IMG/VR virus record: IMGVR_UViG_2663763243_000005
Span: 14,632 to 78,631 of that record
Length of the DNA: 64,000 bases
Reading direction: 5' to 3' (one strand)
Source: a virus
Lineage: Duplodnaviria > Caudoviricetes
The position numbers were made by a program, and so were the translations under genes. Positions 4,353 through 41,886 of this stretch are shown here, in pieces. Under the pieces are notes generated by a model. The model did no database searches. It saw only the letters and a list, made by a program, of their open reading frames with translations, and had not been told where the DNA came from. Each line of letters begins with the position of its first letter. The stretch's first letter is position 1.

Positions 4353-5246
4353 TCAGGGCATGCGCCATTGACTGATCAGCGTAGTTTTCCACGTGTCACC
4401 CCATAGAGTGCCTTCGTGGTATGTACGCAACACATTAAACTGGCCGGTCTGCTGCTGAATATTCGCCAGATTATTAAGGTCGGTGTTATACATGCCGCTG
4501 AAATTGATCGTCCAAAAGCTCGACGTAACATTAATTACATCAGCCGGCTGAATTTGATGATTCATTTTAACGTCAATTTCCATTGTGCTTAGATACCAGC
4601 GAGGCACCCCCTCCATGCCGTTCTGAGCGGTTATATCGTGGGTTACCCCTTTTCTTGCTGCTCCTTCTCTACCCAATAAAACGCGTGTTGGCGTTAGCAT
4701 CCAGTAATATTTCCAGTCCTCCCGTAAGGCATTCAAAATATCGCGGCACAGTCGACCACCTGCATTATAGGAAAAGGCAAAACGGGGAAGGTCTGAGAAA
4801 TCACCAATCACTTCAACATCAAGACCAAATTCACCTGCGACATCTTTCAGCATTTTTATGGCGGGAGTATTGGCTCCCCATACTTTAAAACTGGCAGTAT
4901 TCCATGCCAGCCCAATCGTGCGGCAATATAACCGCAGGCAGGTATTTACCCCCTCTTTGACCACTTCGACATTGTGAATCCGTCCGCTGAATATCGTGCC
5001 GATGTTGTCGCCATAACCAGCTTTTAATACCAGGTTGCCATAACGTTTTTCTTTATCGTCATAGCGCTGAATCAAGGCGCGGGTGCGCGCTGAAATACCG
5101 TAAAGAGTGATTCTGGCAGTAGCATCGACATTCTGCGGGGTATTATCGACGGCAAAGCGGATCTCTAATGGCGGCTGATAGGTAAGTTCATCGCCACTCA
5201 CTGGGGTAATAGTCAGTAAGTAATTGCGGCCAAAATAACTACTCAT
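4353..5246 (-). CDS. Baseplate hub protein
   Basis: LKAGYGDNIGTIFSGRI motif; lies before the spike. Confidence 0.75.
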   Translation of the reverse strand: MSSYFGRNYLLTITPVSGDELTYQPPLEIRFAVDNTPQNVDATARITLYGISARTRALIQRYDDKEKRYGNLVLKAGYGDNIGTIFSGRIHNVEVVKEGVNTCLRLYCRTIGLAWNTASFKVWGANTPAIKMLKDVAGEFGLDVEVIGDFSDLPRFAFSYNAGGRLCRDILNALREDWKYYWMLTPTRVLLGREGAARKGVTHDITAQNGMEGVPRWYLSTMEIDVKMNHQIQPADVINVTSSFWTINFSGMYNTDLNNLANIQQQTGQFNVLRTYHEGTLWGDTWKTTLISQWRMP

Positions 5247-5529
5247 TATCGGGATACCATGTCAGGCGATTATTAATACCAAGATTGGCGATAGTCGGGG
5301 TCTCCCCGGCTAATATCAGCGGGCCAATATCGGTATTAAGTCCCGCCAATAAATTAACGCCAATATGCAAAGCACGTCCCAAAACTACCGGTTCGCCCTG
5401 CTCATAAATATCGACGCAGAAATAATTAAAACGGGTGAGCCAGTGCAGACGAAAAACCAAATAGTGATTATTTAATTGCACTCGGAAACGCTGCACCGCG
5501 TAACCATTGTTTAATGGGATAATCTTCAT
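5239..5529 (-). CDS. Small baseplate protein
   Basis: 96 aa, coupled to neighbours; MKIIPL N-terminus typical of this module. Confidence 0.65.
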   Translation of the reverse strand: MKIIPLNNGYAVQRFRVQLNNHYLVFRLHWLTRFNYFCVDIYEQGEPVVLGRALHIGVNLLAGLNTDIGPLILAGETPTIANLGINNRLTWYPDNE

Positions 5530-6197
5530 TACGTGGCCTCAACAAAAACTTCACCAAATGAGTATTCACGTTGCCCCTGAGTGGCAGCACTATCGCCATA
5601 AGGTAAGTTGTCATTGGTTTCAGCGACCGTGTCGTAAATAATATTGAGCTGCAACAGTTCAACCACAATCTCTAACCCGCCCTCATTCTCTTTTTTCAAT
5701 TGGGTGCGGGTATTGGTGATCAGGCAATTTTTATAGGCTGCTCCCCGGCTGGCCACTAATTCAAACGGCGTATGTGAGCGCTGCAACTCACGCAATTGCT
5801 CGAGTAAATTTTGCGAACGGGTTGAGCGCGATTGTGATCCCAAGCCGCCGGAATACAAACTGGTGCCAACCGAAGCAGCCACTCCTGCCAGCGCCGCCGC
5901 TCGGCCAGAAAGCAAACTGGCCGCCATACCAGTAGTGATACTGGCTCCGGCCCCCAGTAGTCCGGCAATGCTGTTATCTTGCTGGGCCAGCAGTTCACGA
6001 AACCAGTTATCGGACACACCGATAATCATGGTTAGCGCCAGCGCACGCGTCACGGCGTTATCATGAGCGGTATTGGCATCCTCCAGTGGAAACTCACTGA
6101 CATCAGTGCGCAGCTCGCTCGACTCTTCCAGTAATGCATCAAAATAGAGATTGCCGATTTTCGGTCGATTACGAGTAAATAATCCGGTAATAGCCAT
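5529..6197 (-). CDS. Baseplate/tail tube initiator-like protein
   Basis: FDALLEES..VSEFPLE motif; directly after the tape measure. Confidence 0.65.
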   Translation of the reverse strand: MAITGLFTRNRPKIGNLYFDALLEESSELRTDVSEFPLEDANTAHDNAVTRALALTMIIGVSDNWFRELLAQQDNSIAGLLGAGASITTGMAASLLSGRAAALAGVAASVGTSLYSGGLGSQSRSTRSQNLLEQLRELQRSHTPFELVASRGAAYKNCLITNTRTQLKKENEGGLEIVVELLQLNIIYDTVAETNDNLPYGDSAATQGQREYSFGEVFVEAT

Positions 6198-30516: not shown

Positions 30517-32712
30517 TTATGCCGCCATCCTCCAGATACACAGCTCTGGCATATTGGCCCTTACCAGTGCCTCGGCAAAGGGTGGCGGCACCGCATTGCC
30601 ACATCTTGCTACCTGTTCAGATTTGGGCCAGAGGGTGCCATCAATATCCCGATCAATAATGTAATCTGGCGGGAACCCGCTGGCGTTGTAGAGTTCACGG
30701 GCAATCAACATGCGCATACAAATATCAACGATGATGTATTCGCCTACCGATAGATATTGTGGTCGTGGTGCGGGGAATAAATGCCAGTCGTCTGGTAAAT
30801 CGCTGAAATGATCCACCAGCCGAGCACAGTTCCAGGCGTTATAGCGCTGCTCGTCGCTCAGAGGTTCAACATCAAAATTGTTTTCCACCAAGCCAAAACG
30901 CTCTTTAGTCGTCACCGCGTGTATTGGTTCCGAGAGATCTACTGAGCCACCGGTACCGTAATACTTGGTCAGAAAGGCGTTTATTATCCCGACATGATTA
31001 CCGCCGGCGGTTAAGGTCGGTACCGGTTCAGTGATCGGTTTACCATCGCGGCATGTGCCGCGCAATTGCACCAGGTGAGATGTACAAAGCGCGTGGTGAT
31101 CAACCGTGGTGATGGTGTGCAATGGCTGGTTAATATTGATGCCTGCACCGGTATAATTGCCACCGTAATGCTTTACCAAATGGGCAGCGACCATACCCAT
31201 GGCATGACCATTACCACCAGGGCGAACCGATGTACCGGCGGTGACTGTGGATAATGGCTCATCACATTGTTGGCCTATAGCGCCGGTTCTAAATTTGGTT
31301 ATATGCGGTGCCAGTATTGCACTGGCTAACTGGCTTTTACCTCCCCCACCCGCCGTAACGGTACCCAACGGTGTATTGATATCATTTGCCGTACTGTTAC
31401 CGAACTGACGCACAACAACAGGCGCAGCGACAGCAAAACCATGTGTTCTGGTAATGGTCTGCAACGGATCACGTAATGATTGCCCACGGAAGCAATCATA
31501 TTTGGTTTTGGTGCTGGTGTGGTTGCACTTCACCGCATACGGCTCCAGCAATAAATGCTCGGCCTTGCTGGTGATGGTGGTTAGCGGTTGGTCTATTGGA
31601 TACTGCAGACGATCGCCACCGAAACCGGTTTGGCCCAACCGCACAATAAACGGATCAGGGTTATCTATAACAAAGCGTTGCAGCCCTTTGACGATGCGCC
31701 GCAAGGTATTATCAGCCAAATCTTTCTTGCGACCGAAAATAGAGCGTGTTGGCTGGCTCCAGTCGATACATTCGGCCGCCGTTCGCCAAGGTTGCAGCAT
31801 GCCAGAAAGCACATCCGTAGAGTTTGGTGCGCCGTGGCTAGGTTCCGGCCAGACAACCGATTCACCGTCACAACGCCCGACCACAAACAGCCGTTTTCTG
31901 ATGGTCGGTGTGCCGTAATCACAGGCTTTCAGTTCTCGATGGTCCACGTTATACCCCAGCCCTGAAACCAACCTTGCCGCTTCAGGGCCATTGATATCTA
32001 TCTTCAAAAACTCACACACTTCGGTCAGCGCTGGATGATTGCCATCAATACCGGTACCCAGCATGTCAATAAATGCCTTGAACGTTTCCCCTTTACGGGC
32101 TGGATCGGGTCGGTGATTACCCTGGCTATCCGTCAATAATGGCCCCCAGCCGCGAAACTCTTCGACGTTCTCCAACATCAGAAAGCGTGGGCGGACTGCC
32201 AGCGCCCAGCGCAATACCACCCAGGCTAAACCACGAATTTCTTTCTTAACCGGCGTGCCGCCCTTGGCTTTGGAGAAGTGGCGGCAATCAGGACTGAACC
32301 AACCCAGCAATACCGGCAAACCGCCCGTTGATATGAGCGGGTCAACACTGAAAATATCCTCAGGGTAATGCAACGTACGTGGGTGATTGATGGCATGCAT
32401 CGCCATCGCCACTGGGTTATGGTTCATGGCAATATGTGGCTCATAGCCCAATGCTTGCTTAATCCCCTCGCAGCTCCCACCGCCACCAGCGAACCCCACA
32501 ACCACCAAACCATCCTGCAAATCAGGCCGCGCTACCGTGATTTCTTTACGTCGCGCCCATGCATGAGCCGCCTGTTGGATATGCTGCGGATTATCTCGAT
32601 TTAAAAACATCTGGTTCATTTGGAGCAAAAGCTGTTGCTGGTGGTCGGGACTCAAAGCATGTACCGGTATAACCGATGAGGCACATTGATTTACTTCCGT
32701 AGGCCAGATCAT
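30517..32712 (-). CDS. C5 DNA cytosine methyltransferase
   Basis: Motifs FAGGGG, SPDC, ENV, R.RLF, GNAV; central region of repeated P..T.T units. Confidence 0.92.
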   Translation of the reverse strand: MIWPTEVNQCASSVIPVHALSPDHQQQLLLQMNQMFLNRDNPQHIQQAAHAWARRKEITVARPDLQDGLVVVGFAGGGGSCEGIKQALGYEPHIAMNHNPVAMAMHAINHPRTLHYPEDIFSVDPLISTGGLPVLLGWFSPDCRHFSKAKGGTPVKKEIRGLAWVVLRWALAVRPRFLMLENVEEFRGWGPLLTDSQGNHRPDPARKGETFKAFIDMLGTGIDGNHPALTEVCEFLKIDINGPEAARLVSGLGYNVDHRELKACDYGTPTIRKRLFVVGRCDGESVVWPEPSHGAPNSTDVLSGMLQPWRTAAECIDWSQPTRSIFGRKKDLADNTLRRIVKGLQRFVIDNPDPFIVRLGQTGFGGDRLQYPIDQPLTTITSKAEHLLLEPYAVKCNHTSTKTKYDCFRGQSLRDPLQTITRTHGFAVAAPVVVRQFGNSTANDINTPLGTVTAGGGGKSQLASAILAPHITKFRTGAIGQQCDEPLSTVTAGTSVRPGGNGHAMGMVAAHLVKHYGGNYTGAGININQPLHTITTVDHHALCTSHLVQLRGTCRDGKPITEPVPTLTAGGNHVGIINAFLTKYYGTGGSVDLSEPIHAVTTKERFGLVENNFDVEPLSDEQRYNAWNCARLVDHFSDLPDDWHLFPAPRPQYLSVGEYIIVDICMRMLIARELYNASGFPPDYIIDRDIDGTLWPKSEQVARCGNAVPPPFAEALVRANMPELCIWRMAA

Positions 32713-33209
32713 TTAGCACCCCCGCCTTTTGTTTTGGCCCTGAGTATCGAATCCACATAAAAACGCTCACTGACATTGTGCAAGGTAAATTCCGCTACCG
32801 GTTTTTCATCGCGGGTAATATCAACATGTGGCGATTTCATCAAGCCAATCATACGCATCTGCAACATGCGCAGCGTAATGCCGTGATCCGGATAGGATTT
32901 ATCAAGCGCGGCAAGAATACCGGTATAGGTCAATGTTTTACCCAGCATCACTGCCACCAGCTCACTGGCTTTTAGCCGTAGTGCTGATGATGTGTTAGAT
33001 TTTTTAGCCGCTTTAGACTTCTCTGATTTCGTTGCTGCCGATGTAGGAATTACCACCTTTTTCGGCTTGACCGGCGGCGTATAAGGCGCTCGGCATCTGG
33101 CGCGAGCCGCCATTCCCCAGGCATCAATGATGCAGGATGAATGATCACATTTGTCGTCAATCACTGGCCGATTATCATTGATAAAATTATTACAGTTATT
33201 AATTTCCAT
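32709..33209 (-). CDS. Hypothetical early protein
   Basis: Starts in a CGAGGTATGACCAATG box; coupled to the methylase. Confidence 0.7.
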   Translation of the reverse strand: MEINNCNNFINDNRPVIDDKCDHSSCIIDAWGMAARARCRAPYTPPVKPKKVVIPTSAATKSEKSKAAKKSNTSSALRLKASELVAVMLGKTLTYTGILAALDKSYPDHGITLRMLQMRMIGLMKSPHVDITRDEKPVAEFTLHNVSERFYVDSILRAKTKGGGAK

Positions 33210-33226
33210 TGGTCATACCTCGCTCA

Positions 33227-33625
33227 CTACAGGGAATTCTTGTAATCCGTTGCTAACTTTTGCACCCGCCGACATTGGTCTAAATCAAACATGCCGATAT
33301 GGCATTGAGACATTGAAATCTCTAACTGTCCGGCCAACCATTCATATGCTTCTGGTCGCTTCATGCCAAACTCTTGCCACAGCGGATCAAATGCGGCATG
33401 TGCCAACCGCTTCGCCGCTCGTAACTGAGCGTTAGCCAGACGGCCAAGGGGATAAGCATCACTGTTTTTGTGACAGCCCACATAGGCCCCACAAGGCGCA
33501 CATGACCAAAAGAACTGTGAAGCTAAGTCTTGCCGCTGAGGGTAAATTTCATGTCCCCGCACCAGCTTCGCCCCTTTGCCGCAGTAATCGCAAAAGACCG
33601 CTCGGTTGATATTGATCGTTTCCAC
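33227..33625 (-). CDS. Zinc-finger protein (DUF3268-like)
   Basis: CDYC...C.PCGAYVGCH...PLGRLAN..LR...AH..FDPLW...CHIGMF. Confidence 0.8.
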   Translation of the reverse strand: METININRAVFCDYCGKGAKLVRGHEIYPQRQDLASQFFWSCAPCGAYVGCHKNSDAYPLGRLANAQLRAAKRLAHAAFDPLWQEFGMKRPEAYEWLAGQLEISMSQCHIGMFDLDQCRRVQKLATDYKNSL

Positions 33626-33628
33626 TTT

Positions 33629-34576
33629 TTAATCTCCGCTATAGGGCTGTTCACCACTTTCGGTGTAAGCCTGTTTGAGATAACCCCGCCAGGCGTTATG
33701 AGCTATCGTTTCGTTTTTCATCCGTAAATTGGCATTTTGGGCTTGTTTCAATGCCCTGCGTTCGGCTGAGTTTTTTGGCTCATTACCCTTGAGTACCAGC
33801 CGCCGGAATGCGCCTTCAAAATCAATATTCAAATGCCCTGTATGGGACTGGCTGGCTTTCGGCTCAAACAATCCCTGCCACTCATTGGCAATGCTTTGAG
33901 CAATGACCACCGCTGGTGCATGGCCGTTTTCCTTGAATATCGCCAGCTGATTGATTGCGCCCATTGCCCCCTGTTTGGTTTTAATTGGTTTTTTTAAATC
34001 ACAACGAAATTGAACCCACTCTTCCCACAACTCAGTCGGTAACCATTCCGGCAGTTCGATATTTAACGGATCAAATGTCTTACCTTCCCTTTTCCCCTTG
34101 GGGGGTACAGGGGGGTTTTCTTTTAGTTCTTTCTCTTCCTCTAACTCTTCCTCTGGTAACGCTTTTTGATCCGGTGGTGTAACGCCGCCAGCGTTACCTT
34201 TGTTGTTACGTTTTGATTTCGAATCTCTAAATTCAGTAACGCGCCTACTTGTAACTGCCCGTTTTTTAGAGCCTTTTCCGTTATGGCGGTCAAAGTCAGG
34301 AAAGTACATTTTCCCGCCGTCATGTTTTAACCATCCAACTGTTATCAGTGCATCAGCAAAACCAGACATAAAAGTGATACGGTCAATACCAATTCTTGTA
34401 ACGCTGACGGCGTTACCATCTGCGTTACCGTCGATGGTCTGTTGGTCAGCCCAGACCCAAACACGAATTAATTTCCCAAGCACTGTATCTGGGTCGATAT
34501 TCAGGATTTCAGCCAGTTGGAAGATCTCCGGTTTATCTGGAGTAATCACTTCGACTTTTATCCAACTTGATGCCAT
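33629..34576 (-). CDS. Replication initiation protein (O-like)
   Basis: WIKVE..TPDKPE N-terminus; LPEWL...W.EWVQFR...QSIANEWQGLF; position after the cII analogue. Confidence 0.8.
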   Translation of the reverse strand: MASSWIKVEVITPDKPEIFQLAEILNIDPDTVLGKLIRVWVWADQQTIDGNADGNAVSVTRIGIDRITFMSGFADALITVGWLKHDGGKMYFPDFDRHNGKGSKKRAVTSRRVTEFRDSKSKRNNKGNAGGVTPPDQKALPEEELEEEKELKENPPVPPKGKREGKTFDPLNIELPEWLPTELWEEWVQFRCDLKKPIKTKQGAMGAINQLAIFKENGHAPAVVIAQSIANEWQGLFEPKASQSHTGHLNIDFEGAFRRLVLKGNEPKNSAERRALKQAQNANLRMKNETIAHNAWRGYLKQAYTESGEQPYSGD

Positions 34577-34588
34577 ACCTACCCCGAT

Positions 34589-34777
34589 TCAGTGCTGCTC
34601 TGTAACGCTGATAACGTTACATTTGGCGTGACTAGTATTAAAAAGAGCGTTAAATGCTCTCCGTTGCCCTTGCATGGCTTCACGGGTAAATTGCCGTAAA
34701 ATCACCCGCGCCATATTTGCTGTGATAGGCATATTCCCGTACCGATAACCATTGCGATAAGTCAGTTTTTTAGCCAT
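34589..34777 (-). CDS. Small hypothetical protein
   Basis: 62 aa; GGAGG-like RBS; overlaps the upstream gene. Confidence 0.6.
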   Translation of the reverse strand: MAKKLTYRNGYRYGNMPITANMARVILRQFTREAMQGQRRAFNALFNTSHAKCNVISVTEQH

Positions 34778-35021
34778 GTGGCACCCGCCACGGCTTTTTA
34801 GCTTTAACGACTTTCGCTACCGGTTTATCCCGCATCCGCTTATAAGGCTTGGCGTATGTCTTAGCCCAAACTAACGCGCTGGCAAATGTAGAGTTCGGCG
34901 TATCGGTGTAATGCTTACCGCCTTGAATAGCCGCCGATCTGGCGACTGTCTCGCTAAAACCGGCACGTTGCAGTTCATCTCGTAATTGTTGCTCGACTTG
35001 TTCTCTGGAAAATCTGGCCAT
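34770..35021 (-). CDS. Small hypothetical protein
   Basis: 83 aa; starts in a CGAGGTATGACCAATG box. Confidence 0.7.
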   Translation of the reverse strand: MARFSREQVEQQLRDELQRAGFSETVARSAAIQGGKHYTDTPNSTFASALVWAKTYAKPYKRMRDKPVAKVVKAKKPWRVPHG

Positions 35022-35034
35022 TGGTCATACCTCG

Positions 35035-35475
35035 TTATGCAATCAACTGCTGTGTCAGCGGAATAAGTGCATGTATCGCCTCAGTGGCTTTAATTAATTT
35101 CTGCGACATATCAGAGCAGCCCAACAACACCGCACTCATCGCCAGCGAGAAATCGCGCAATGCTTGTGCCGCCAAATAATTCACTGAATTGGGGTTTTCC
35201 AATCTGGCACGCCGCTCTCCTGGCAATGCCTGAAGAATGGCTGGGGTAAGTTCGGCGATTTTTGCTCTGGCCTTGTCAGTGTCACTATCAACCCAGCGGA
35301 ACAAGCGCTGTTTGTTGTTGTATGTAGCGTGTTCATCCTCAATGGGCGTGAGTGGAAGCTCATCACCACCGAGATCGAAATAAGCCTGTGCCACTTCTGC
35401 CGCGACAATTTCTTGTTTGGTTTCTGCTGCCCAACTCCGCAATTCTGCGCAGATGGCATCATGTTTTAATTTCAC
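35035..35475 (-). CDS. ydaT: YdaT-family CII-equivalent regulator
   Basis: KHDAI..L.SWAA...QE.VAAE...AY...NNKQRLFRWV..DT......EL.PAI..ALP; position after cro. Confidence 0.8.
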   Translation of the reverse strand: MKLKHDAICAELRSWAAETKQEIVAAEVAQAYFDLGGDELPLTPIEDEHATYNNKQRLFRWVDSDTDKARAKIAELTPAILQALPGERRARLENPNSVNYLAAQALRDFSLAMSAVLLGCSDMSQKLIKATEAIHALIPLTQQLIA

Positions 35476-35493
35476 AGCGACCTCCTTATGAAA

Positions 35494-35513
35494 GCTGATT
35501 TTTAAAAATCAGC
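35494..35513. promoter_or_regulatory. YdaT-type operator (pRE position)
   Basis: Perfect palindrome GCTGATT-TTTAAA-AATCAGC, close to the TTGATT-N6-AATCAA site reported for YdaT. Confidence 0.7.
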
Positions 35514-35515
35514 GT

Positions 35516-35713
35516 TTACTGTGCTGGTGTTATAGGCTTGTCATAATCAATAGGGTCGTAATGCAATTCGCCATTAGAGGCTTTCTCTAATCGAACGGCC
35601 CTTTTCTCTGGGACTAAATCACCCCAAGCAGAAACTGATGGCGGCTTAACCCCCGCAGCTTTTGCCAGAGCACTCTTGGTGCCGAAATATTGAATGGCAT
35701 CTTTTTTTAACAC
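35516..35713 (-). CDS. cro: Cro-like repressor (DicC/YdaS type)
   Basis: GTG start after AGGAGAGG; AIQYFGTKSALAKAAGV...VSAWG..VP..RA. Confidence 0.85.
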   Translation of the reverse strand: MLKKDAIQYFGTKSALAKAAGVKPPSVSAWGDLVPEKRAVRLEKASNGELHYDPIDYDKPITPAQ

Positions 35714-35727
35714 GTCGCCTCTCCTGC

Positions 35728-35795
35728 TGTTAGATTTAGTTAACAAGTTATTTGTTCAGGAAATTTAAGTCAAGAGAATTTAGAATTACCTAACT
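35728..35795. promoter_or_regulatory. Three OR-like operators between cro and cI
   Basis: 18-bp imperfect palindromes (TGTTA-N8-TAACA type) starting at 35728, 35753 and 35778, 25 bp apart. Confidence 0.6.
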
Positions 35796-36188
35796 ATGAA
35801 AAATCCCGGTGAACGCATCAGAGAGCGGCGAAATGAGCTGCAACTAACCCAACGCAGCCTTGCAAAGGCGGTGAAAGTGTCCCATGTCACCATTTCACAA
35901 TGGGAAAGCAACGACAGTTCACCTTCTGGCAAAAATCTATTTGCCCTGAGTACCGCATTACAGTGCTCACCAACGTGGATTTTATACGGGGATACAGATC
36001 AATCCCCCTCACCCGCAGTAAAGATCCCACCTGAACTTGATGAGAGAGAAGCTGAACTAATTCAATTGTTTGCGTCTCTTCCTGAATCAGAAAAAGAGCG
36101 GCACTTAACAGACCTTCGGCTTAAAGTTGATGAGTTAAACCGACTTTTTGAAGAGCTGTTACAAACCAGAAAAAAACTCGCCAAATAA
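35796..36188 (+). CDS. cI: CI-like repressor (DicA/RacR type, no S24 peptidase domain)
   Basis: GERIRERR..L.LTQ..LAK.V.VS..TISQWE HTH; divergent from cro. Confidence 0.9.
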   Translation: MKNPGERIRERRNELQLTQRSLAKAVKVSHVTISQWESNDSSPSGKNLFALSTALQCSPTWILYGDTDQSPSPAVKIPPELDEREAELIQLFASLPESEKERHLTDLRLKVDELNRLFEELLQTRKKLAK

Positions 36189-36231
36189 ATATTCATACTT
36201 TTCAAATTCTTACCGCTAATTTCGCCCTTAT

Positions 36232-36283
36232 TGTTAAGTTTGTTTAAATTTACGATTGAATTTATTGTTAGTTTAAATTAACT
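36232..36283. promoter_or_regulatory. Two OL-like operators
   Basis: TGTTAAGTTTGTTTAAAT (36232) and TGTTAGTTTAAATTAACT (36266) resemble the OR sites. Confidence 0.5.
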
Positions 36284-36361
36284 TTAACCCATCAACGGCA
36301 CAACAGCCGCTTAGGTAAGCAAGTTCTGACAATCTGAAAGCAGATAAAAAGGGATAAGGCG

Positions 36362-36673
36362 ATGGCATTAGATCACGGAATATTAAACCTACCCCTCACT
36401 AAACGTGGGAATAGCGATTTTCACAAAGAGCTTGATGCTCACCTGAAAAGTGAAAAACGTATTGCGGCAGATAAACGCTTCGTAGCCGCTTCAAACTTTA
36501 ACGCTAACAAAGCTGCTGCACTTGAAGCCTTCAATCGTATCAGCGATACACTGTTAAAAGCAGAGGCGAAAAAACGTGGTGTAAGAGCAAGATCCCTGAA
36601 AAAAATTATTCGTGAAACATGTTCAGATAATCCAGTTAAGGCAATAAAGATTTTAGAATTGTTAACTGAATAG
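36362..36673 (+). CDS. Hypothetical basic early protein
   Basis: First ORF of the pL-like operon; RBS present. Confidence 0.65.
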   Translation: MALDHGILNLPLTKRGNSDFHKELDAHLKSEKRIAADKRFVAASNFNANKAAALEAFNRISDTLLKAEAKKRGVRARSLKKIIRETCSDNPVKAIKILELLTE

Positions 36674-36785
36674 GAACAACATAGTTAATATAAAAGAGTT
36701 ATTAGAAAAGATTCGTGAAATTATAGCGGGGTTAATAACGAGGCAATCATATGTTCATTTTCAATTTTTAATATTCAGGAAATTT

Positions 36786-36959
36786 ATGGAGCAACTATTA
36801 TTCGCTTTAGTTGTATCGGTATGCCCTGCTCATGAAATTTGTAGGGATATTGTCTATGAAGTTTATGACACCCAACAAGAATGTGAAAAAGTCATTTTCG
36901 AAAATAGGTTATTCAACGGCAACTGCTACCCAGTCGATGCCATTATTCATCAACAATAA
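36786..36959 (+). CDS. DUF1482 family small protein
   Basis: 57 aa, below ORF-track cutoff: MEQLLFALVVSVC...C.D....VYDTQQEC......GNCYPVD.IIH; AGGA RBS. Confidence 0.75.
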   Translation: MEQLLFALVVSVCPAHEICRDIVYEVYDTQQECEKVIFENRLFNGNCYPVDAIIHQQ

Positions 36960-36972
36960 CGAGGTATGACCA

Positions 36973-37305
36973 ATGAAATTTAAAGAAATTAAATTATCTA
37001 TTAAACCACTTTATAATGACGTTGCTCAGTTATCCGCAGAAAATGAAGTAATCGGCTATGCCGTTAAAAATAAAGAGGCTAATTCACCGCTGGCTTCTAT
37101 TATTTTACCTAATGGTGAACTTTTAGGGGATTACCATTGTATGGGCTGTGCAATTAAAGCCGCCACTAAACATTATATTGGCATTGGCGAAGATGAAGCC
37201 ATTGAGGCCAATTTCAGCTTCGGTAATAACAACGTCCGTAACTTATTATTAGCTGCATTGTTATCAAGTGTTGTTGATGATTTAACCACTCAATCCAGAC
37301 ATTAA
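36973..37305 (+). CDS. Hypothetical early protein
   Basis: 110 aa; HCMGC motif; starts in the repeated box. Confidence 0.7.
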   Translation: MKFKEIKLSIKPLYNDVAQLSAENEVIGYAVKNKEANSPLASIILPNGELLGDYHCMGCAIKAATKHYIGIGEDEAIEANFSFGNNNVRNLLLAALLSSVVDDLTTQSRH

Positions 37306-37400
37306 TAATTGCAGTCAACACCAGTGAAACGGTCGTAAAACTCAGCTTATTAAAGTGGATATATCGACGCCGAAAACGTAACCGGCATTAAAACAGACGT

Positions 37401-37512
37401 AAAAAAGCCCACACAAGGTGGGCAATCTTACCGGCTTAACGTCCCGGTGACGGCAGAGTCAGCGACCAAACCGACTCTAGCGAGGTATGACCAATGGCTT
37501 CCACCACTGGAC
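37401..37512 (-). ncRNA. Predicted antisense sRNA complementary to the six-fold repeated RBS/start box
   Basis: TTGTCT-18-TATAAT promoter (37548-37519), two internal hairpins, terminator GCCCAC-CTTGT-GTGGGC-TTTTTT (37423-37401). Confidence 0.65.
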
Positions 37513-37808
37513 GCCGAAATTATAGCGAGATCTCTATGCAAAAGACAACACTTAGAATCCTGGCTGATTCTATCGTCATCGCTAATGCTGCTAAATCCCC
37601 CGCATTAGTCGAAGTTGGAGCGAGTCCAGACGCGATAATGGGCACTGTTTCAGATCTAATAGAATCCGGCATTGTAGATGTACGTGATTTAATTTCTCTG
37701 GCTTTAGAGCAAATTAAAAAATGTGACTCTACGTCGTTAGATCATGTATTACCCACAGATGAATTAATAGCACTGACCGATTGTTATTATCAGATTAAAA
37801 ATAATTAG
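37494..37808 (+). CDS. Hypothetical protein under cis-antisense control
   Basis: 104 aa; starts in the repeated box; antisense promoter lies in its first codons. Confidence 0.7.
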   Translation: MASTTGRRNYSEISMQKTTLRILADSIVIANAAKSPALVEVGASPDAIMGTVSDLIESGIVDVRDLISLALEQIKKCDSTSLDHVLPTDELIALTDCYYQIKNN

Positions 37809-37821
37809 CGAGGAATGACCA

Positions 37822-39975
37822 ATGAGCTTATTTGTATGTGGGTTTCTACCCAAAAAATCAGCTATGGCAAATGGTGCTGTAGCCATGGCGATTACTGTTG
37901 ATGCCAAAAATCAAAAAATGGCAACAATGAAATCCACCATGTTATTAGAAGGGGAATTCCCCGGATCAAGTGGTAATTTCTTTGCACCTAAAGTGTGTGC
38001 TGATCGTGTGGGTTCCCCTCGACCGCCGGTACATGATGATGCTGAAGATAATGCCATATTCAGCACTGAATGGATGGAACATAATCAATGGAATGATGAA
38101 ACTAAAGAATTTGAACCTATCGTTATTGATAATACTGACGAAATTGACAATGTTAAAAACATCTTCGATTTACCAATTAACGTAAGAATTGCATATGTTT
38201 TATTATATGGCGTAGAGCCTGAAATTGTTGATAGCCATCTATTATCTAATGCATACGATTTAATTAATGATGATGAATCAGAGCCGTTATATCGTGCAGT
38301 TATTGATGGCTTGCCACGCTTACCACAAGTTAAGCACATGTACATCACTACATTGGCACAACTCATTGATGATGTTCAGGCCCACACTCCGGTATTTAAA
38401 TCATGGCCGGACGTTAACAAGTTTGCTGAAAAGTGGATCAACTCTCGTCCAGATGAGCGGGAACACCCTGACAATCAAGCGAATGAACAAGCCAATTCAT
38501 CGCCTACGCCAGCGAGTCATCGTGAACGCGATTATAAGCATGATTACGCCTCTCTCGATCTTGAAGTCGCCTGCGCCCTGTTCCCCGGTGATTATGATGT
38601 TTGGGAAGTGCCATCATCCATTTATCGTGGCGCTAAAGAAAAAGTAGAAAAAGGTGATGAGGCTTGGCGGCGCTGGTCAACTGCTTTACGGATTATCCCT
38701 GCCATTTTAGCGGTTTCCCGTGATGATCTGTTTGCAATGATCCGCAGTGCTGAACTGGATATTCATAAAGACCCAGCCAAGCTGAAAGCCTATATCAATC
38801 AGTGTTTACAGCTTGATGTAATCAAAGCCGATGATGTGAAAACAGCAAACCTTGGCGATGGCAAATTTAGTGTTGATGGCTTGACCGGCGCAGCCAACGA
38901 TTCACCGGCGAATACCAGCACAATCGAAAAACCAAAAACTGTTACAAAAGTGCCAAAAGGTGCAACAGAACAGCCCAATCATGTATCAAACATTGCAAAT
39001 AGCACCATTAATGACGAAACAGCGACCATTAACGCCGAGACCCATACCAATGAGCAGATAGAGTCTGAATCACCGCATCCTACCGCAGATGAGTTCCAAC
39101 AGCGGGCATCACAGATCGATCAGGATATCTCTAAGTTACCCAAAGAGTCTCAGGATAATTTAAGTATCTGGAAATCAGTACAGCGCACCGATCCCGCGCG
39201 TACCAAGCGCAAAGATACGACCAAAAATGGCAAAGTCATTCGCTCTGTGACCAGCATCAATCCTACCTATCAGACAATGAGAGCCACGGAAATCTTTGGC
39301 CCCTTTGGTAGCGGCTGGGGCGTGGATATTATCAGTGAGGAATTTATACCCGGCATCCCATTTATGGAGTCGATTCTGGATAGCAACAATCGAGAGATCG
39401 GGCGCAAGCCCATGCGTGATGGGGATGGCACCATTCTACGGACATCCAACCACACTATGCGGATTGAACTGTGGTACCAACACGCAGGAGGTCGGGGCCG
39501 CTTCCCCGCTTTTGGTCATACCAAACATATTTATCAGAGTACCAACGGTTTCATTTGTGACGATGAAGTCAGCAAAAAAAGCCTAACGGACGCCACGACC
39601 AAAGCATTAGCACAGCTTGGTTTCAGCGCTGATGTGTTTATGGGTCTGTTTGATGATGCTGAATACACCGCCGACAATAATATTGAGTTCGGTATTAAAA
39701 ATGCCAGCACTAAAGCTGATGATGTGGTTCGTCTACGTAAAGAGTTAGACGACAAATTCAAAGCCAATACCGAGACGATGAAAACAGCAGTCACGGCGAA
39801 TGAAGTGACAAAAATCAGCACCTCACTAACACGCACCATCGGGGTTCATCTCAAGAATGCCGAATCATCCCATGATGATGAACACGTCAAATATCTGACC
39901 GGCCGTCTAACCCGTTTGAATCAAATCAAAGATGAGTGCCTGACAAAATTTGTCACTGAGGGAGAAAAAGCATGA
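37822..39975 (+). CDS. RecE-N-like region fused to a Rad52/Sak-like annealing domain
   Basis: N-terminal part like the exonuclease VIII N-region (LDLEVACAL, WRRWSTALR); C-terminal ATEIFGPFG.GWG...KKSLTDATTKAL..LGFSADVF. Confidence 0.7.
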   Translation: MSLFVCGFLPKKSAMANGAVAMAITVDAKNQKMATMKSTMLLEGEFPGSSGNFFAPKVCADRVGSPRPPVHDDAEDNAIFSTEWMEHNQWNDETKEFEPIVIDNTDEIDNVKNIFDLPINVRIAYVLLYGVEPEIVDSHLLSNAYDLINDDESEPLYRAVIDGLPRLPQVKHMYITTLAQLIDDVQAHTPVFKSWPDVNKFAEKWINSRPDEREHPDNQANEQANSSPTPASHRERDYKHDYASLDLEVACALFPGDYDVWEVPSSIYRGAKEKVEKGDEAWRRWSTALRIIPAILAVSRDDLFAMIRSAELDIHKDPAKLKAYINQCLQLDVIKADDVKTANLGDGKFSVDGLTGAANDSPANTSTIEKPKTVTKVPKGATEQPNHVSNIANSTINDETATINAETHTNEQIESESPHPTADEFQQRASQIDQDISKLPKESQDNLSIWKSVQRTDPARTKRKDTTKNGKVIRSVTSINPTYQTMRATEIFGPFGSGWGVDIISEEFIPGIPFMESILDSNNREIGRKPMRDGDGTILRTSNHTMRIELWYQHAGGRGRFPAFGHTKHIYQSTNGFICDDEVSKKSLTDATTKALAQLGFSADVFMGLFDDAEYTADNNIEFGIKNASTKADDVVRLRKELDDKFKANTETMKTAVTANEVTKISTSLTRTIGVHLKNAESSHDDEHVKYLTGRLTRLNQIKDECLTKFVTEGEKA

Positions 39976-40484
39976 GCACAAGCGCCATATCATTAGCCAC
40001 TGATTACCGAAAATTGCAGGAAATGGCCGATAGCGGTGATGAACTCACCCCCGAAATGGTCGCTGACACTCTCTCTGGTATTGAGGGCATGCTGGAAGAT
40101 AAGTTCGATGCCTTGATGGCATTGGTTCGTAACACGCTGGGTCAGGCAGAGATATGTGCCAACGAAGCCAAGCGGATGAGTGCACGCAAGAAAAGTTTTG
40201 ATAATCAGGCTGAAATCTACCGTAAATATATATTGGAATGCATGATTCAGGCCGGCAAAGACTCGATCAAAACGGCGTCTAATACATTCACTGCCCGAAA
40301 AGGGACAAAAAAACTCGTTATCACCGATGTAAATTTGTTGCCTGATGAATATGTAGACTCCGTTTCTCAGGTGCAAATTATCACCACCCCAAAAGCCGAT
40401 GAAATCAAAGCTGCCTTAAATGAGGGCCTATTGATAGCCGGTGCCAAGTTTGAAACTGGCGAACGTTCGTTAGCCGTCCGCTAA
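39972..40484 (+). CDS. Gp157-family protein
   Basis: DTL.GIEG..EDK...E.KR...RKKS......LPDEY...IKAAL..G..I.GA. Confidence 0.85.
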   Translation: MSTSAISLATDYRKLQEMADSGDELTPEMVADTLSGIEGMLEDKFDALMALVRNTLGQAEICANEAKRMSARKKSFDNQAEIYRKYILECMIQAGKDSIKTASNTFTARKGTKKLVITDVNLLPDEYVDSVSQVQIITTPKADEIKAALNEGLLIAGAKFETGERSLAVR

Positions 40485-40501
40485 CTGATTTTTAAAAATC
40501 A
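40485..40501. promoter_or_regulatory. Second YdaT-type operator upstream of xis-int (pI-like position)
   Basis: CTGATT-TTTAAA-AATCA(A), same 17 bp as the cro-ydaT site. Confidence 0.65.
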
Positions 40502-40556
40502 AAACTGAACCGGTCAGCGCGTTACTATGCTGGCCGGTCATATCGAGGTATGACCA

Positions 40557-40871
40557 ATGGCTAAATTAATGACATTAACCGAATGGTGTGATGAAACGTA
40601 TGCGACTGACAAGCCGACGATTCAAACACTCCAACGCTGGGCCAGAAACGGTAACTTTTACCCTGCGGCAGAAAAACACGGCAGACAGTATAGGGTAAAA
40701 CCTAATGCTATTTATATCGATCCGAAGGATTTCAATCTCGGTAAAAAAATCAAAGATGCCAAAAGCGCGGCCCCTGCGCGGAATGCGTTTATGGAGAAAG
40801 TGATCAATGACTCGGCGGAAAAAGTACGATGCGAACTTACCGCGCAATCTCACCTATCGCCATCGCTATAA
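40557..40871 (+). CDS. xis: Excisionase
   Basis: MTLTEW...P...TL.RWAR.G..YP...KHGR.YRV...A.Y; overlaps int. Confidence 0.9.
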   Translation: MAKLMTLTEWCDETYATDKPTIQTLQRWARNGNFYPAAEKHGRQYRVKPNAIYIDPKDFNLGKKIKDAKSAAPARNAFMEKVINDSAEKVRCELTAQSHLSPSL

Positions 40872-41886
40872 ATCATACTATTGGCGCAATCCGTTAACAG
40901 GGAAAGAAATCCCGTTAGGCCAAATCTCCCGCAGAGAAGCCGTTTCACAATCTATCGAGGCCAATAATTATGTTGAGCAAAACTACTCTCCTGTATTACT
41001 ACTGGAAAAATTGAAAGGCACACAAGAGTACACAATGACCTCCTGGCTTGAACGTTACGATGTCATATACAAGCGCAGAGAATTGGCAATGAACACTTAC
41101 AAAGTTCGCAAGGGGCAAATAGCCATGATCAGCGAAAAGATGGGCAATATGGTTCTGGCTAAAATCACCACCCGTCACGTTGCTGAATTTCTAGAGTTTT
41201 GGGTGGCACAGGACAAAAAAACCATGGCCGCCACCATGCGATCAGTGTTGTCTGATATTTTCCGAGAGGCGATTGTCGAGGGCCATATAGATAATAATCC
41301 AGTGACACCGACACGCTCAGCTAAACCGGTGGTGAAACGTGAGCGCCTGGAACTGGATCAGTATCTCGCTATTCGTGAGGTCGCTGACACATTACCGGCG
41401 TGGTTTGGGCTATCAATGGATCTGGCACTGGTGACGGGCCAACGACGTGAAGATTTATCACTGATGCGCTTTGACCAGATTGTTGATGGCAGATTACAGA
41501 TAGACCAAGGCAAAACAGGAGCCATGATCTCCCTGCCCTTAGATCTTGAGCTTAAAGCCGTTGGCCTACGTCTTAACACCGTGATTGAACAATGTAGATT
41601 AGCCAGTAAGACTGATTTTATGATAAGTGCTGGCATCAGAAAAAATAGCCCTGATGGCTCACTGCATCCAGATAGCCTGACAAAGAAATTCGTAACGGCG
41701 AGAAAAGGAACAGATTTTCGTTTTGATGAGAGTCCACCAACTTTTCACGAGATCAGAAGTCTCGCTGGGCGATTGTATGAAAAGGAAAAAGGTAAAGAAT
41801 TTGCGATGAAACTGCTGGGGCATAAATCGGAGAAGATGACGAACAAGTATCTTGATACGAGGGGTAAAGAATACGTAATGCTATAA
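40807..41886 (+). CDS. int: Lambda-family tyrosine integrase
   Basis: Arm-binding N-terminus; catalytic GQRRED, FHEIRSL, LGHKS and KY residues. Confidence 0.97.
   Translation: MTRRKKYDANLPRNLTYRHRYKSYYWRNPLTGKEIPLGQISRREAVSQSIEANNYVEQNYSPVLLLEKLKGTQEYTMTSWLERYDVIYKRRELAMNTYKVRKGQIAMISEKMGNMVLAKITTRHVAEFLEFWVAQDKKTMAATMRSVLSDIFREAIVEGHIDNNPVTPTRSAKPVVKRERLELDQYLAIREVADTLPAWFGLSMDLALVTGQRREDLSLMRFDQIVDGRLQIDQGKTGAMISLPLDLELKAVGLRLNTVIEQCRLASKTDFMISAGIRKNSPDGSLHPDSLTKKFVTARKGTDFRFDESPPTFHEIRSLAGRLYEKEKGKEFAMKLLGHKSEKMTNKYLDTRGKEYVML

Follow-up and report, generated by a model that had tools for sequence, protein, structure and literature searches.

Why should six unrelated genes, lying on both strands of one prophage early region, all begin with essentially the same 16 nucleotides (nt)? 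The question is raised by a 64,000-nt stretch of a Caudoviricetes genome (positions 14,632 to 78,631 of IMG/VR record IMGVR_UViG_2663763243_000005), the whole of which is called the window here. The region concerned is the early region of a Rac/lambda-like prophage, and in it a first-pass annotation, made from the letters alone, had noted a sequence, CGAGGTATGACCAATG (hereafter the box), at five exact copies and one copy with a single mismatch. It had offered three readings of this identity: a target of a small RNA (sRNA), a site for an RNA-binding regulator, or a microhomology boundary for the shuffling of modules. The first of these is the one that our results support, as a candidate antisense sRNA gene with an exact complement of the box (the anti-box) was found, and is conserved alongside the boxes in every related locus examined. 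On comparison of these sequences, the boxes are probably the targets of this conserved antisense sRNA, which had not previously been described.

The box at gene starts

All six copies were recovered on both strands at the positions where they had been reported, 0.04 being expected by chance: the six matches in the window at up to two mismatches were equalled in 0 of 100 shuffles. When the whole 78,631-base record was searched, there were again six copies at up to three mismatches, and the next-best sites had four. The box is a discrete element, and both the late genes, from which it had been said to be missing, and the remainder of the record are without copies.

Every copy finishes in the ATG of an open reading frame (ORF), and a check of the ORFs agreed with the earlier statement that this last ATG is the gene start in six cases out of six; PHROG or Pfam support was found for five of the six box-headed ORFs. 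On the minus strand, an exact copy at 33207-33222 heads an ORF of 166 amino acids (aa; 32709-33209) that overlaps the gene for a 731-aa DNA methyltransferase (30517-32712) by 4 nt, and a second exact copy at 35019-35034 heads an 83-aa ORF (34770-35021). The latter is the first gene past the YdaT/CII-like gene in the rightward early operon, and opens a block containing the O-like replication gene. On the plus strand, exact copies are located at 36960-36975, heading a 110-aa ORF (36973-37305) and abutting the stop codon of a DUF1482 gene, at 37481-37496, heading a 104-aa ORF (37494-37808), and at 40544-40559, heading the excisionase gene (40557-40871), which overlaps the integrase gene (40807-41886). 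The copy at 37481-37496 is the template for the anti-box of the predicted sRNA, and is called the cis box below. The remaining plus-strand copy, at 37809-37824, is the variant CGAGGAATGACCAATG, with A in place of T at position 6 (T6A), and heads a 717-aa exonuclease gene (37822-39975).

Within the box are a Shine-Dalgarno (SD) core, GAGG, a fixed 8-nt spacer and the ATG. At the junction 5' of the boxes, three copies abut the preceding stop codon, one stands at 4 nt, and two lie behind non-coding spacers (175 and 59 nt). An out-of-frame ATG upstream of the true start had also been pointed out. The triplet is there, but the weight laid on it is not supported: box positions 7-9 read AAG in most of the other lineages, and since the upstream ATG is not kept in their box variants we regard it as incidental and unlikely to be functional, and reject it as an upstream ORF.

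To see how far the box extends beyond this record, viral and host genomes were searched. The exact box was present in 58 IMG/VR stretches on 40 contigs, 34 of them with at least two copies and six with one. A search of one genome per species matched 112 stretches; among the matches listed (80 of the 112), single matches were scattered over all phyla, as by chance, and multi-copy matches occurred only in Yersinia, Serratia, Erwinia, Izhakiella, Mixta and Rahnella. A motif common at host gene starts, which the first-pass annotation had named as counting against its observation, is not what five whole host genomes (3.7-5.6 Mb) contain: all 35 copies at up to one mismatch fell in one early-region cluster (up to 8.2 kb) per genome, that of genome G005 consisting of three small contigs, and a control with the reversed pattern gave 0 copies in the five genomes.

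Across the 58 viral loci and the window there are 213 copies at up to one mismatch, most of which head ORFs, in 18 protein families, and each of the six box-gene families of the window recurs with a box in 22-33 loci. Pairwise identity was 0.96-1.00 for the box and 0.38-0.92 for the 60 nt on each side, a contrast that is partly built in because these loci were found via the box. This bias is lacking in a set of 80 loci fetched by exonuclease homology alone, at 98% down to 36% identity. These loci have related boxes at the same gene positions (GAGGTATGACCAATG, GAGGCAAGACCAATG, GAGGCAAAACCAATG and GGAAAGACCAATG, plus spacing variants). Box types differ between lineages (GGTATGACC, GGCAAGACC, GGCAAAACC, GGAAAGACC) and are almost uniform within a locus, the mean box difference being 0.70 within a locus and 1.59 between loci. 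Such a concerted change of spacer positions in at least five copies is not expected of a merely good ribosome-binding site (RBS).

In seven loci (L031, L033, L040, L048, L118, L144 and L150) an extra box was observed directly 3' of the repressor gene. These extra boxes head tiny ORFs of 9-27 codons with a common T-T-R-Q-R-like motif, which could represent remnants or leader peptides, or else additional decoy targets for the sRNA.

A predicted antisense RNA across one box

A scan for promoters and terminators over 35400-37600, together with fold prediction and a covariance model, pointed to an antisense sRNA of about 110 nt on the minus strand, running from ~37512 to ~37401. Its promoter-like site, TTGTCT-18 nt-TATAAT (37519-37548, minus strand), agrees with the consensus at 10 of 12 positions and is placed just inside the 104-aa ORF. 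An intrinsic terminator follows at 37400-37423 on the same strand, with a 6-bp G+C-rich stem (37423-37407) and then TTTTTT, and a compensatory change was seen in this stem at pair 94/102. Promoter-like site and terminator thereby bracket the cis box on the minus strand, and nt 17-32 of the predicted sRNA, CAUUGGUCAUACCUCG, are the exact complement of the box.

The sRNA is predicted to fold at -48.5 kcal/mol (z = -4.0), a stability equalled by 0 of 200 shuffles. Its layout is hairpin 1, the anti-box, hairpin 2 with a second UUGGUC motif in its loop (37464-37469), hairpin 3, and a terminator hairpin followed by a U6 tail; in the consensus fold, the anti-box is unpaired over its SD-complementary part. 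Alignment of 29 distinct lineage-A copies gave four helices with 31 pairs, seven of which show compensatory double changes. Paired cells made up 99.2%, compared with 96.0% in shuffles (0/500 as high) and 23-48% in slid controls, and the covariation score was 0.148, compared with 0.084 in shuffles, none of which reached it (0/500). Four pairs (columns 6-19, 10-15, 41-52 and 43-50) are mostly G-U on the minus strand and would be mismatches if read on the plus strand.

We then asked how widely this RNA is conserved. The covariance model, R1, scores 145.6 bits at the sRNA of the window, and a full-length match on the strand opposite the exonuclease gene was found at 81 of 81 loci (the window and the 80 exonuclease-homology loci), a result that takes in lineages absent from model building. 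These matches lie 350-1500 nt upstream of the exonuclease gene, with E values from 1e-35 to 2.4e-4; plus-strand matches in the same place had E values of at least 0.019. Lineages outside the training set keep the terminator and have an anti-box that fits their own box type. Of 48 distinct upstream regions, 46 retain a -10-like hexamer whose end lies 4-10 nt ahead of the RNA start, despite the differences between them in the overlapping plus-strand ORF. Exactly one sRNA match was present in each of the 34 IMG/VR contigs with several boxes, and none in the six contigs with a single box. In an order-level sample, R1 matched at E ≤1e-3 in 11 of 151 genomes; four of the 9 new matches were inspected, of which one (L255) looks real and three look like terminators only. 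No Rfam 15 family matched at E ≤1 on either strand of the window between 30000 and 43000.

An RNA gene at this site accounts for several features of the cis box. Its flanks from -60 to +22 are conserved at the nucleotide level (0.92 identity in the upstream 60 nt), two conserved hexamers with a variable spacer lie within the first codons of the 104-aa ORF, and mini-ORFs of 12-14 codons persist where the 104-aa gene was replaced. Moreover, in several lineages the cis box heads a mere mini-ORF (4-38 codons), in some with an ordinary SD-ATG start about 35 nt downstream, which argues that the cis box is kept as part of an RNA gene and not as a gene start. We predict from these features that the sRNA is a discrete gene with its own promoter-like site and Rho-independent terminator, on the strand opposite its target and conserved across lineages.

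To relate the sRNA to the boxes at other genes, boxes in trans were compared with the sRNA of their own genome. The mean longest perfect complement was 13.8 nt (n = 251, of which 134 were fully complementary), compared with 7.7 nt for the same boxes and the sRNAs of other box types (n = 6458). In the window, five boxes are complementary to the sRNA at 16 of 16 positions and the exonuclease box at 15 of 16, over a stretch that includes both SD and start codon. UUGGUC, which is complementary to the invariant core GACCAA of the box, recurs in the hairpin loops of the sRNAs and was counted 71 times in 31 representative sequences, compared with 2.3 ± 1.6 in shuffles. Duplex energies of the full-length sRNA failed to discriminate between candidate starts, and the calculation was instead made with the seed region (nt 12-36). 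With this, the six box genes rank 1-6 in the record at -29.5 to -44.5 kcal/mol, against a mean of -10.4 for 2100 candidate starts, a ranking which follows from the identity of the box sequences and is therefore not independent evidence.

Three further candidate signals were dropped. Inside the exonuclease gene (39512-39522, plus strand), 11 nt complementary to the box core, TTGGTCATACC, are probably a chance occurrence and not a conserved anti-box; most loci with exonuclease identity of 80% or more have them, and relatives at about 49% do not. The sequence GGTATAACCGATG at 32666 is a chance match inside the methylase gene on the opposite strand. Covariation of the hairpin-loop motif with the box type in lineage C was set aside when the same loop variant was seen in a lineage with the other box core.

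With moderate confidence, we propose on the strength of these sequence features that the phage encodes a multi-target antisense RNA that represses translation of its box-headed early genes. The box would be the shared translation-initiation region of these genes, kept identical as the target of the sRNA. The sRNA would be transcribed from its own promoter across the box of the 104-aa gene to the intrinsic terminator, and would pair in trans with the exonuclease, excisionase, replication-block and other box genes of both early operons. Pairing would cover the SD and the ATG and so block ribosome binding, perhaps also exposing the mRNAs to decay, and the net effect would be either to silence leaky early expression in the lysogen or to time the shut-off of early genes. 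Because its promoter faces the leftward early operon, the sRNA would be expected to accumulate in the lysogen and to set a threshold for leaky early transcripts, and strong early transcription after induction would titrate it. We infer these steps of pairing, threshold and titration from complementarity and gene layout. If they are correct, one RNA and a shared 16-nt ribosome-binding "operator" would control a set of early genes in two divergent operons, forming a post-transcriptional counterpart of a repressor-operator system, and the natural box/anti-box variants would be ready-made orthogonal translational repressor pairs.

A more far-reaching version, which by analogy with the c4 RNA of phages P1 and P7 we raise as a doubtful possibility, is that box and anti-box constitute an immunity system at the RNA level. 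A constitutive prophage sRNA would silence its own leaky early transcripts together with the early genes of superinfecting relatives that carry the same box, namely those for replication, recombination and excision. As part of the same joint reading, the box types would be RNA heteroimmunity groups arising from an arms race, as for c4 but with a whole regulon as the target.

Several observations weigh against repression of the box genes by the sRNA. The case for pairing in trans is one of complementarity, and an antisense RNA to one gene necessarily has an anti-box, so that its existence is in itself no proof of the other boxes being targets. In the consensus fold, the CAUUGG part of the anti-box is taken up in the base pairs of hairpin 1. 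In 26 of 27 members the exonuclease family carries the T6A variant, which is inherited with the gene and constitutes a stable mismatch to the anti-box, and in the lineage of L209 and L213 a single central position of the sRNA's own box does not agree with the trans boxes, which reduces the contiguous complement to 9-10 nt; pairing is therefore not kept perfect in every case. The uniform box type within genomes could also stem from descent within gene pools. The locus sets are related to one another and were found via the box or via one gene, so that locus counts do not represent independent events. As to transcription, the RNA runs available as raw reads (X9-X11) come from material without this prophage and match the window at 36291-36347 only, and the run that has a relative (X1) consists of contigs alone, which show no strand, ends or level.

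Alternative explanations for the shared start

The alternative that best withstands the evidence, and that we think possible if rather unlikely, is that the box is a standardised intercistronic or translation-initiation cassette. Its SD spacing, unstructured spacer and suitability for re-initiation after a stop codon would be used by the first gene of each translationally coupled block, and any antisense RNA that is made would act in cis only. The placement of GAGG 8 nt before the ATG fits this well, as do the three boxes of six that abut an upstream stop and the overlapping or tightly spaced later genes of the blocks. Stable inheritance of the exonuclease variant (26/27) is what gene-specific tuning would give, and the start-associated sequences of Cluster K mycobacteriophages are a precedent for which no partner is known. 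However, late genes, which need strong translation, have no box, and spacer positions that ribosome binding does not evidently need show no variation within a lineage but change in concert from one lineage to another. A cassette of this kind also leaves it unclear why the cis box is retained even where it heads a mini-ORF alone, and why the sRNA has extra UUGGUC loops that are unnecessary for pairing in cis.

Among the facts assembled above, the invariant 13-16 nt over the SD and ATG are also of the size of a protein footprint, and restriction of the box to early genes and its lineage-specific variants would fit co-evolution with a phage factor. The box could then be the operator of a phage RNA-binding translational repressor or endoribonuclease, in the manner of the T4 early-gene regulators RegA and RegB. 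No candidate protein was found, the small ORFs associated with boxes being without matches to RNA-binding families, whereas a complementary RNA partner that accounts for the same facts was found, and we consider a protein operator very unlikely.

Another reading, which we rate as highly improbable, is that the box is a linker or boundary sequence in the sense of Susskind and Botstein, that is, a microhomology used for module swaps by the phage recombinase and kept because recombinants arise through it. Joints at the box do occur. There are pairs of loci with an identical downstream 60 nt and unrelated upstream sequence that break exactly at the box, and a 202-nt cassette (box plus 62-aa ORF) forms a precise box-to-box insertion or deletion that distinguishes L040 and L118 from L015, L028 and L033, one class among 283 same-strand box pairs. 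The C-terminal part of the phage exonuclease matches annealing-protein annotations. Recent change points were scanned in a stricter version, the first scan having been dominated by rate differences along the exonuclease gene, and 25 of 119 were located within 50 columns of a box, a zone of about 8.5% of the alignment (17 leftward blocks).

Comparison with box-less junctions nevertheless showed no excess. Homology breaks were similarly frequent at box junctions (0.40; 905 of 2260 pair comparisons at 104 junctions) and at box-less ones (0.336; 1794 of 5337, 385 junctions). Switching to a non-homologous upstream partner was seen in 4 of 9 box-headed and 9 of 20 box-less classes (Fisher's exact test p = 1.0), and with stricter minimum counts in 3/7 and 2/5 box-headed classes compared with 8/14 and 6/9 box-less ones, respectively. 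The cycle rank was 0 in both sets of junctions. The biggest piles of recent crossovers are intragenic, in the exonuclease gene (24) and the excisionase gene (18), and second-order selection would not be expected to fix 16 of 16 positions. The suggestion of a microhomology boundary is thus not supported: joints at the box are not enriched over those at box-less junctions (p = 1), and most recent crossovers are inside genes. The box can serve as a microhomology, yet it is not a preferred joint.

Least credible is a sense-strand role for the hairpins at ~37400-37512 within the leftward early mRNA, for instance as an antitermination or processing site, with no antisense RNA at all. In its favour, stems of Watson-Crick pairs can form on both strands (z = -3.0 for 37400-37530 folded as the plus strand), and the region lies in the 175-nt non-coding spacer inside the operon. 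Against it, only the minus strand suits the promoter-like hexamers, the U-tract behind the terminator stem and the four pairs that are mostly G-U, and outside the training set all significant R1 matches are on the strand opposite the exonuclease gene.

Genomic setting, a cultured carrier and known systems

The plus strand of the early region carries a helix-turn-helix repressor gene (35796-36188), a 103-aa ORF, the DUF1482 gene and the box-headed 110-aa and 104-aa ORFs. These are followed by the box-headed 717-aa exonuclease gene (phrog_2489), a Gp157/Gam-like gene (39972-40484) coupled to it through a 4-nt overlap, and the box-headed excisionase gene overlapping the integrase gene. On the minus strand lie a Cro/YdaS-like gene, the YdaT/CII-like gene, the box-headed 83-aa ORF and a 62-aa ORF, then the O-like replication gene, a DUF3268 gene and the box-headed 166-aa ORF overlapping the DNA methyltransferase gene. 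It follows from this gene order and these overlaps that, in both early operons, box genes stand at the head of blocks whose genes overlap or are tightly packed.

Some further features of the region were observed. In tblastn searches the N-terminal half of the exonuclease matches RecE/exonuclease VIII-like proteins, and residues ~440-675 of 717 match phage proteins that include one with an annotation as a RAD52-like annealing protein, so the protein encoded at 37822-39975 may be a fused exonuclease-annealase. The reads of three RNA runs from a related strain, which match only 36291-36347, all start at 36291 with loose ends before it. The segment has the highest contig depth, and an A+T-rich promoter-like stretch lies just 5' of 36291 (36250-36347 on the plus strand of the window). 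Probably the leftward early transcript starts here, with a conserved leader that other prophages have as well. Directly 5' of the excisionase box, at 40505-40543, is a 10-bp hairpin, ACCGGTCAGC...GCTGGCCGGT, which is kept in relatives and is followed on the minus strand by a T-rich run; judging by its sequence, it could terminate transcription arriving from the integrase side.

A cultured phage, Pectobacterium phage ZF40, was found to carry the system, which brings laboratory tests within reach. Boxes precede gp03, gp05, gp07, gp13, gp16 and gp18, and R1 matches with E = 1.4e-6 on the strand opposite the exonuclease gene, within the annotated gp08. In NC_019522.1, gp08 (4919-5407, GTG start) overlaps the predicted sRNA on the other strand (5237-5369, plus strand), and the 5' part of gp08 may be a mis-annotation. 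With the lineage-B sRNA of L202 as query, blastn against 50,697 phage records found two records of ZF40 and a single 29-nt match, and against 5,426 complete E. coli genomes it found one; the system may have gone unnoticed because it is so rare in model organisms. Phage ST64B was considered as a second carrier and rejected, as it has no boxes, matches R1 weakly (16.3 bits) and has a different leader element.

That element is non-coding, about 35-80 nt long, and was observed in L240 (4735-4814), ST64B (L251; 2501-2534) and ZF40 (6067-6148), in whose records it is unannotated. It sits just downstream of the repressor gene and the leftward promoter, is 90-100% identical across phages of Salmonella, Klebsiella, Citrobacter, Pantoea, Pectobacterium and E. 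coli, and may represent an early-leader RNA that has been conserved.

No published description of these boxes or of the RNA was found in a search outside which lay supplementary files and subscription journals, and the box strings did not occur in the searchable literature. Among the papers listed for phage sRNAs directed at ribosome-binding sites, judged by title and the opening of the abstract, none was of this kind. In the ZF40 genome paper there is no occurrence of "ribosom-", "Shine", "motif" or "antisense". The available part of a 2025 review of phage sRNAs (PMC12197685) covers eleven, each with a single target gene or with host targets, and includes no shared-RBS regulon.

With the boundary or linker sequences of lambdoid phages (Clark et al., 2001; Susskind and Botstein, 1978; both as cited in PMC3029335) and the PeSL elements of T4-type phages, which are promoter-plus-terminator cassettes with experimentally shown recombination and mini-circles (PMC2839356), the box has in common that it is a short conserved regulatory repeat between early or accessory genes at which module exchange is possible. 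It differs from PeSLs in that the repeat here is an RBS at which breakpoints are not enriched.

A closer likeness is to the Start-Associated Sequences (SAS) of Cluster K mycobacteriophages, 13 bp in length (GGGATAGGAGCCC), located 3-7 bp before the start and present in 11-19 copies (PMC3203893); their function was still called unverified in 2025, with no known partner molecule (PMC12699233). Like the box, SAS are short and asymmetric, and recur in a single orientation where many unrelated genes or gene families start. The two kinds of repeat are also restricted to non-structural genes, essentially missing from the host genome and conserved across subgroups, and each combines an SD core with conserved positions that the SD leaves unexplained. 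The box has another sequence, other hosts (those of SAS being Mycobacterium) and another copy number, includes the ATG, and has a complementary antisense RNA gene predicted beside it, so that it is an analogue of SAS and not a member. Should the proposed regulation be correct, it would offer a concrete and testable reason for the identical start-associated sequences of some phages, a question that has stood since 2011 for Cluster K, and would suggest a simple check for such motifs, namely to look for an antisense RNA over one of the copies. If the immunity logic were true, it might also explain the unexplained mycobacteriophage sequences.

For the RNA itself, the nearest counterparts are P22 sar, P1/P7 c4 and lambda OOP, antisense RNAs of temperate phages that block an RBS (PMC12197685). 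In c4 the complementary stretches lie in loops, and differences in their sequence define P1/P7 heteroimmunity (PMC12197685). Like these, the sRNA predicted here from sequence is small, has a promoter-like site of its own where they have a promoter, and is complementary to the ribosome-binding region of a phage gene; sar, c4 and OOP act on lysis-lysogeny circuitry, a point they would share with the predicted sRNA of this lambda-like prophage. They differ from it in having one target or operon each (ant, cII), whereas the 16-nt complement here extends to six gene starts spread over two divergent operons. Here the shared RBS is itself the target sequence, and there is no sequence or Rfam relationship. 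Antisense control in temperate phages is thus known, and what would be new here is the proposed shared-RBS regulon.

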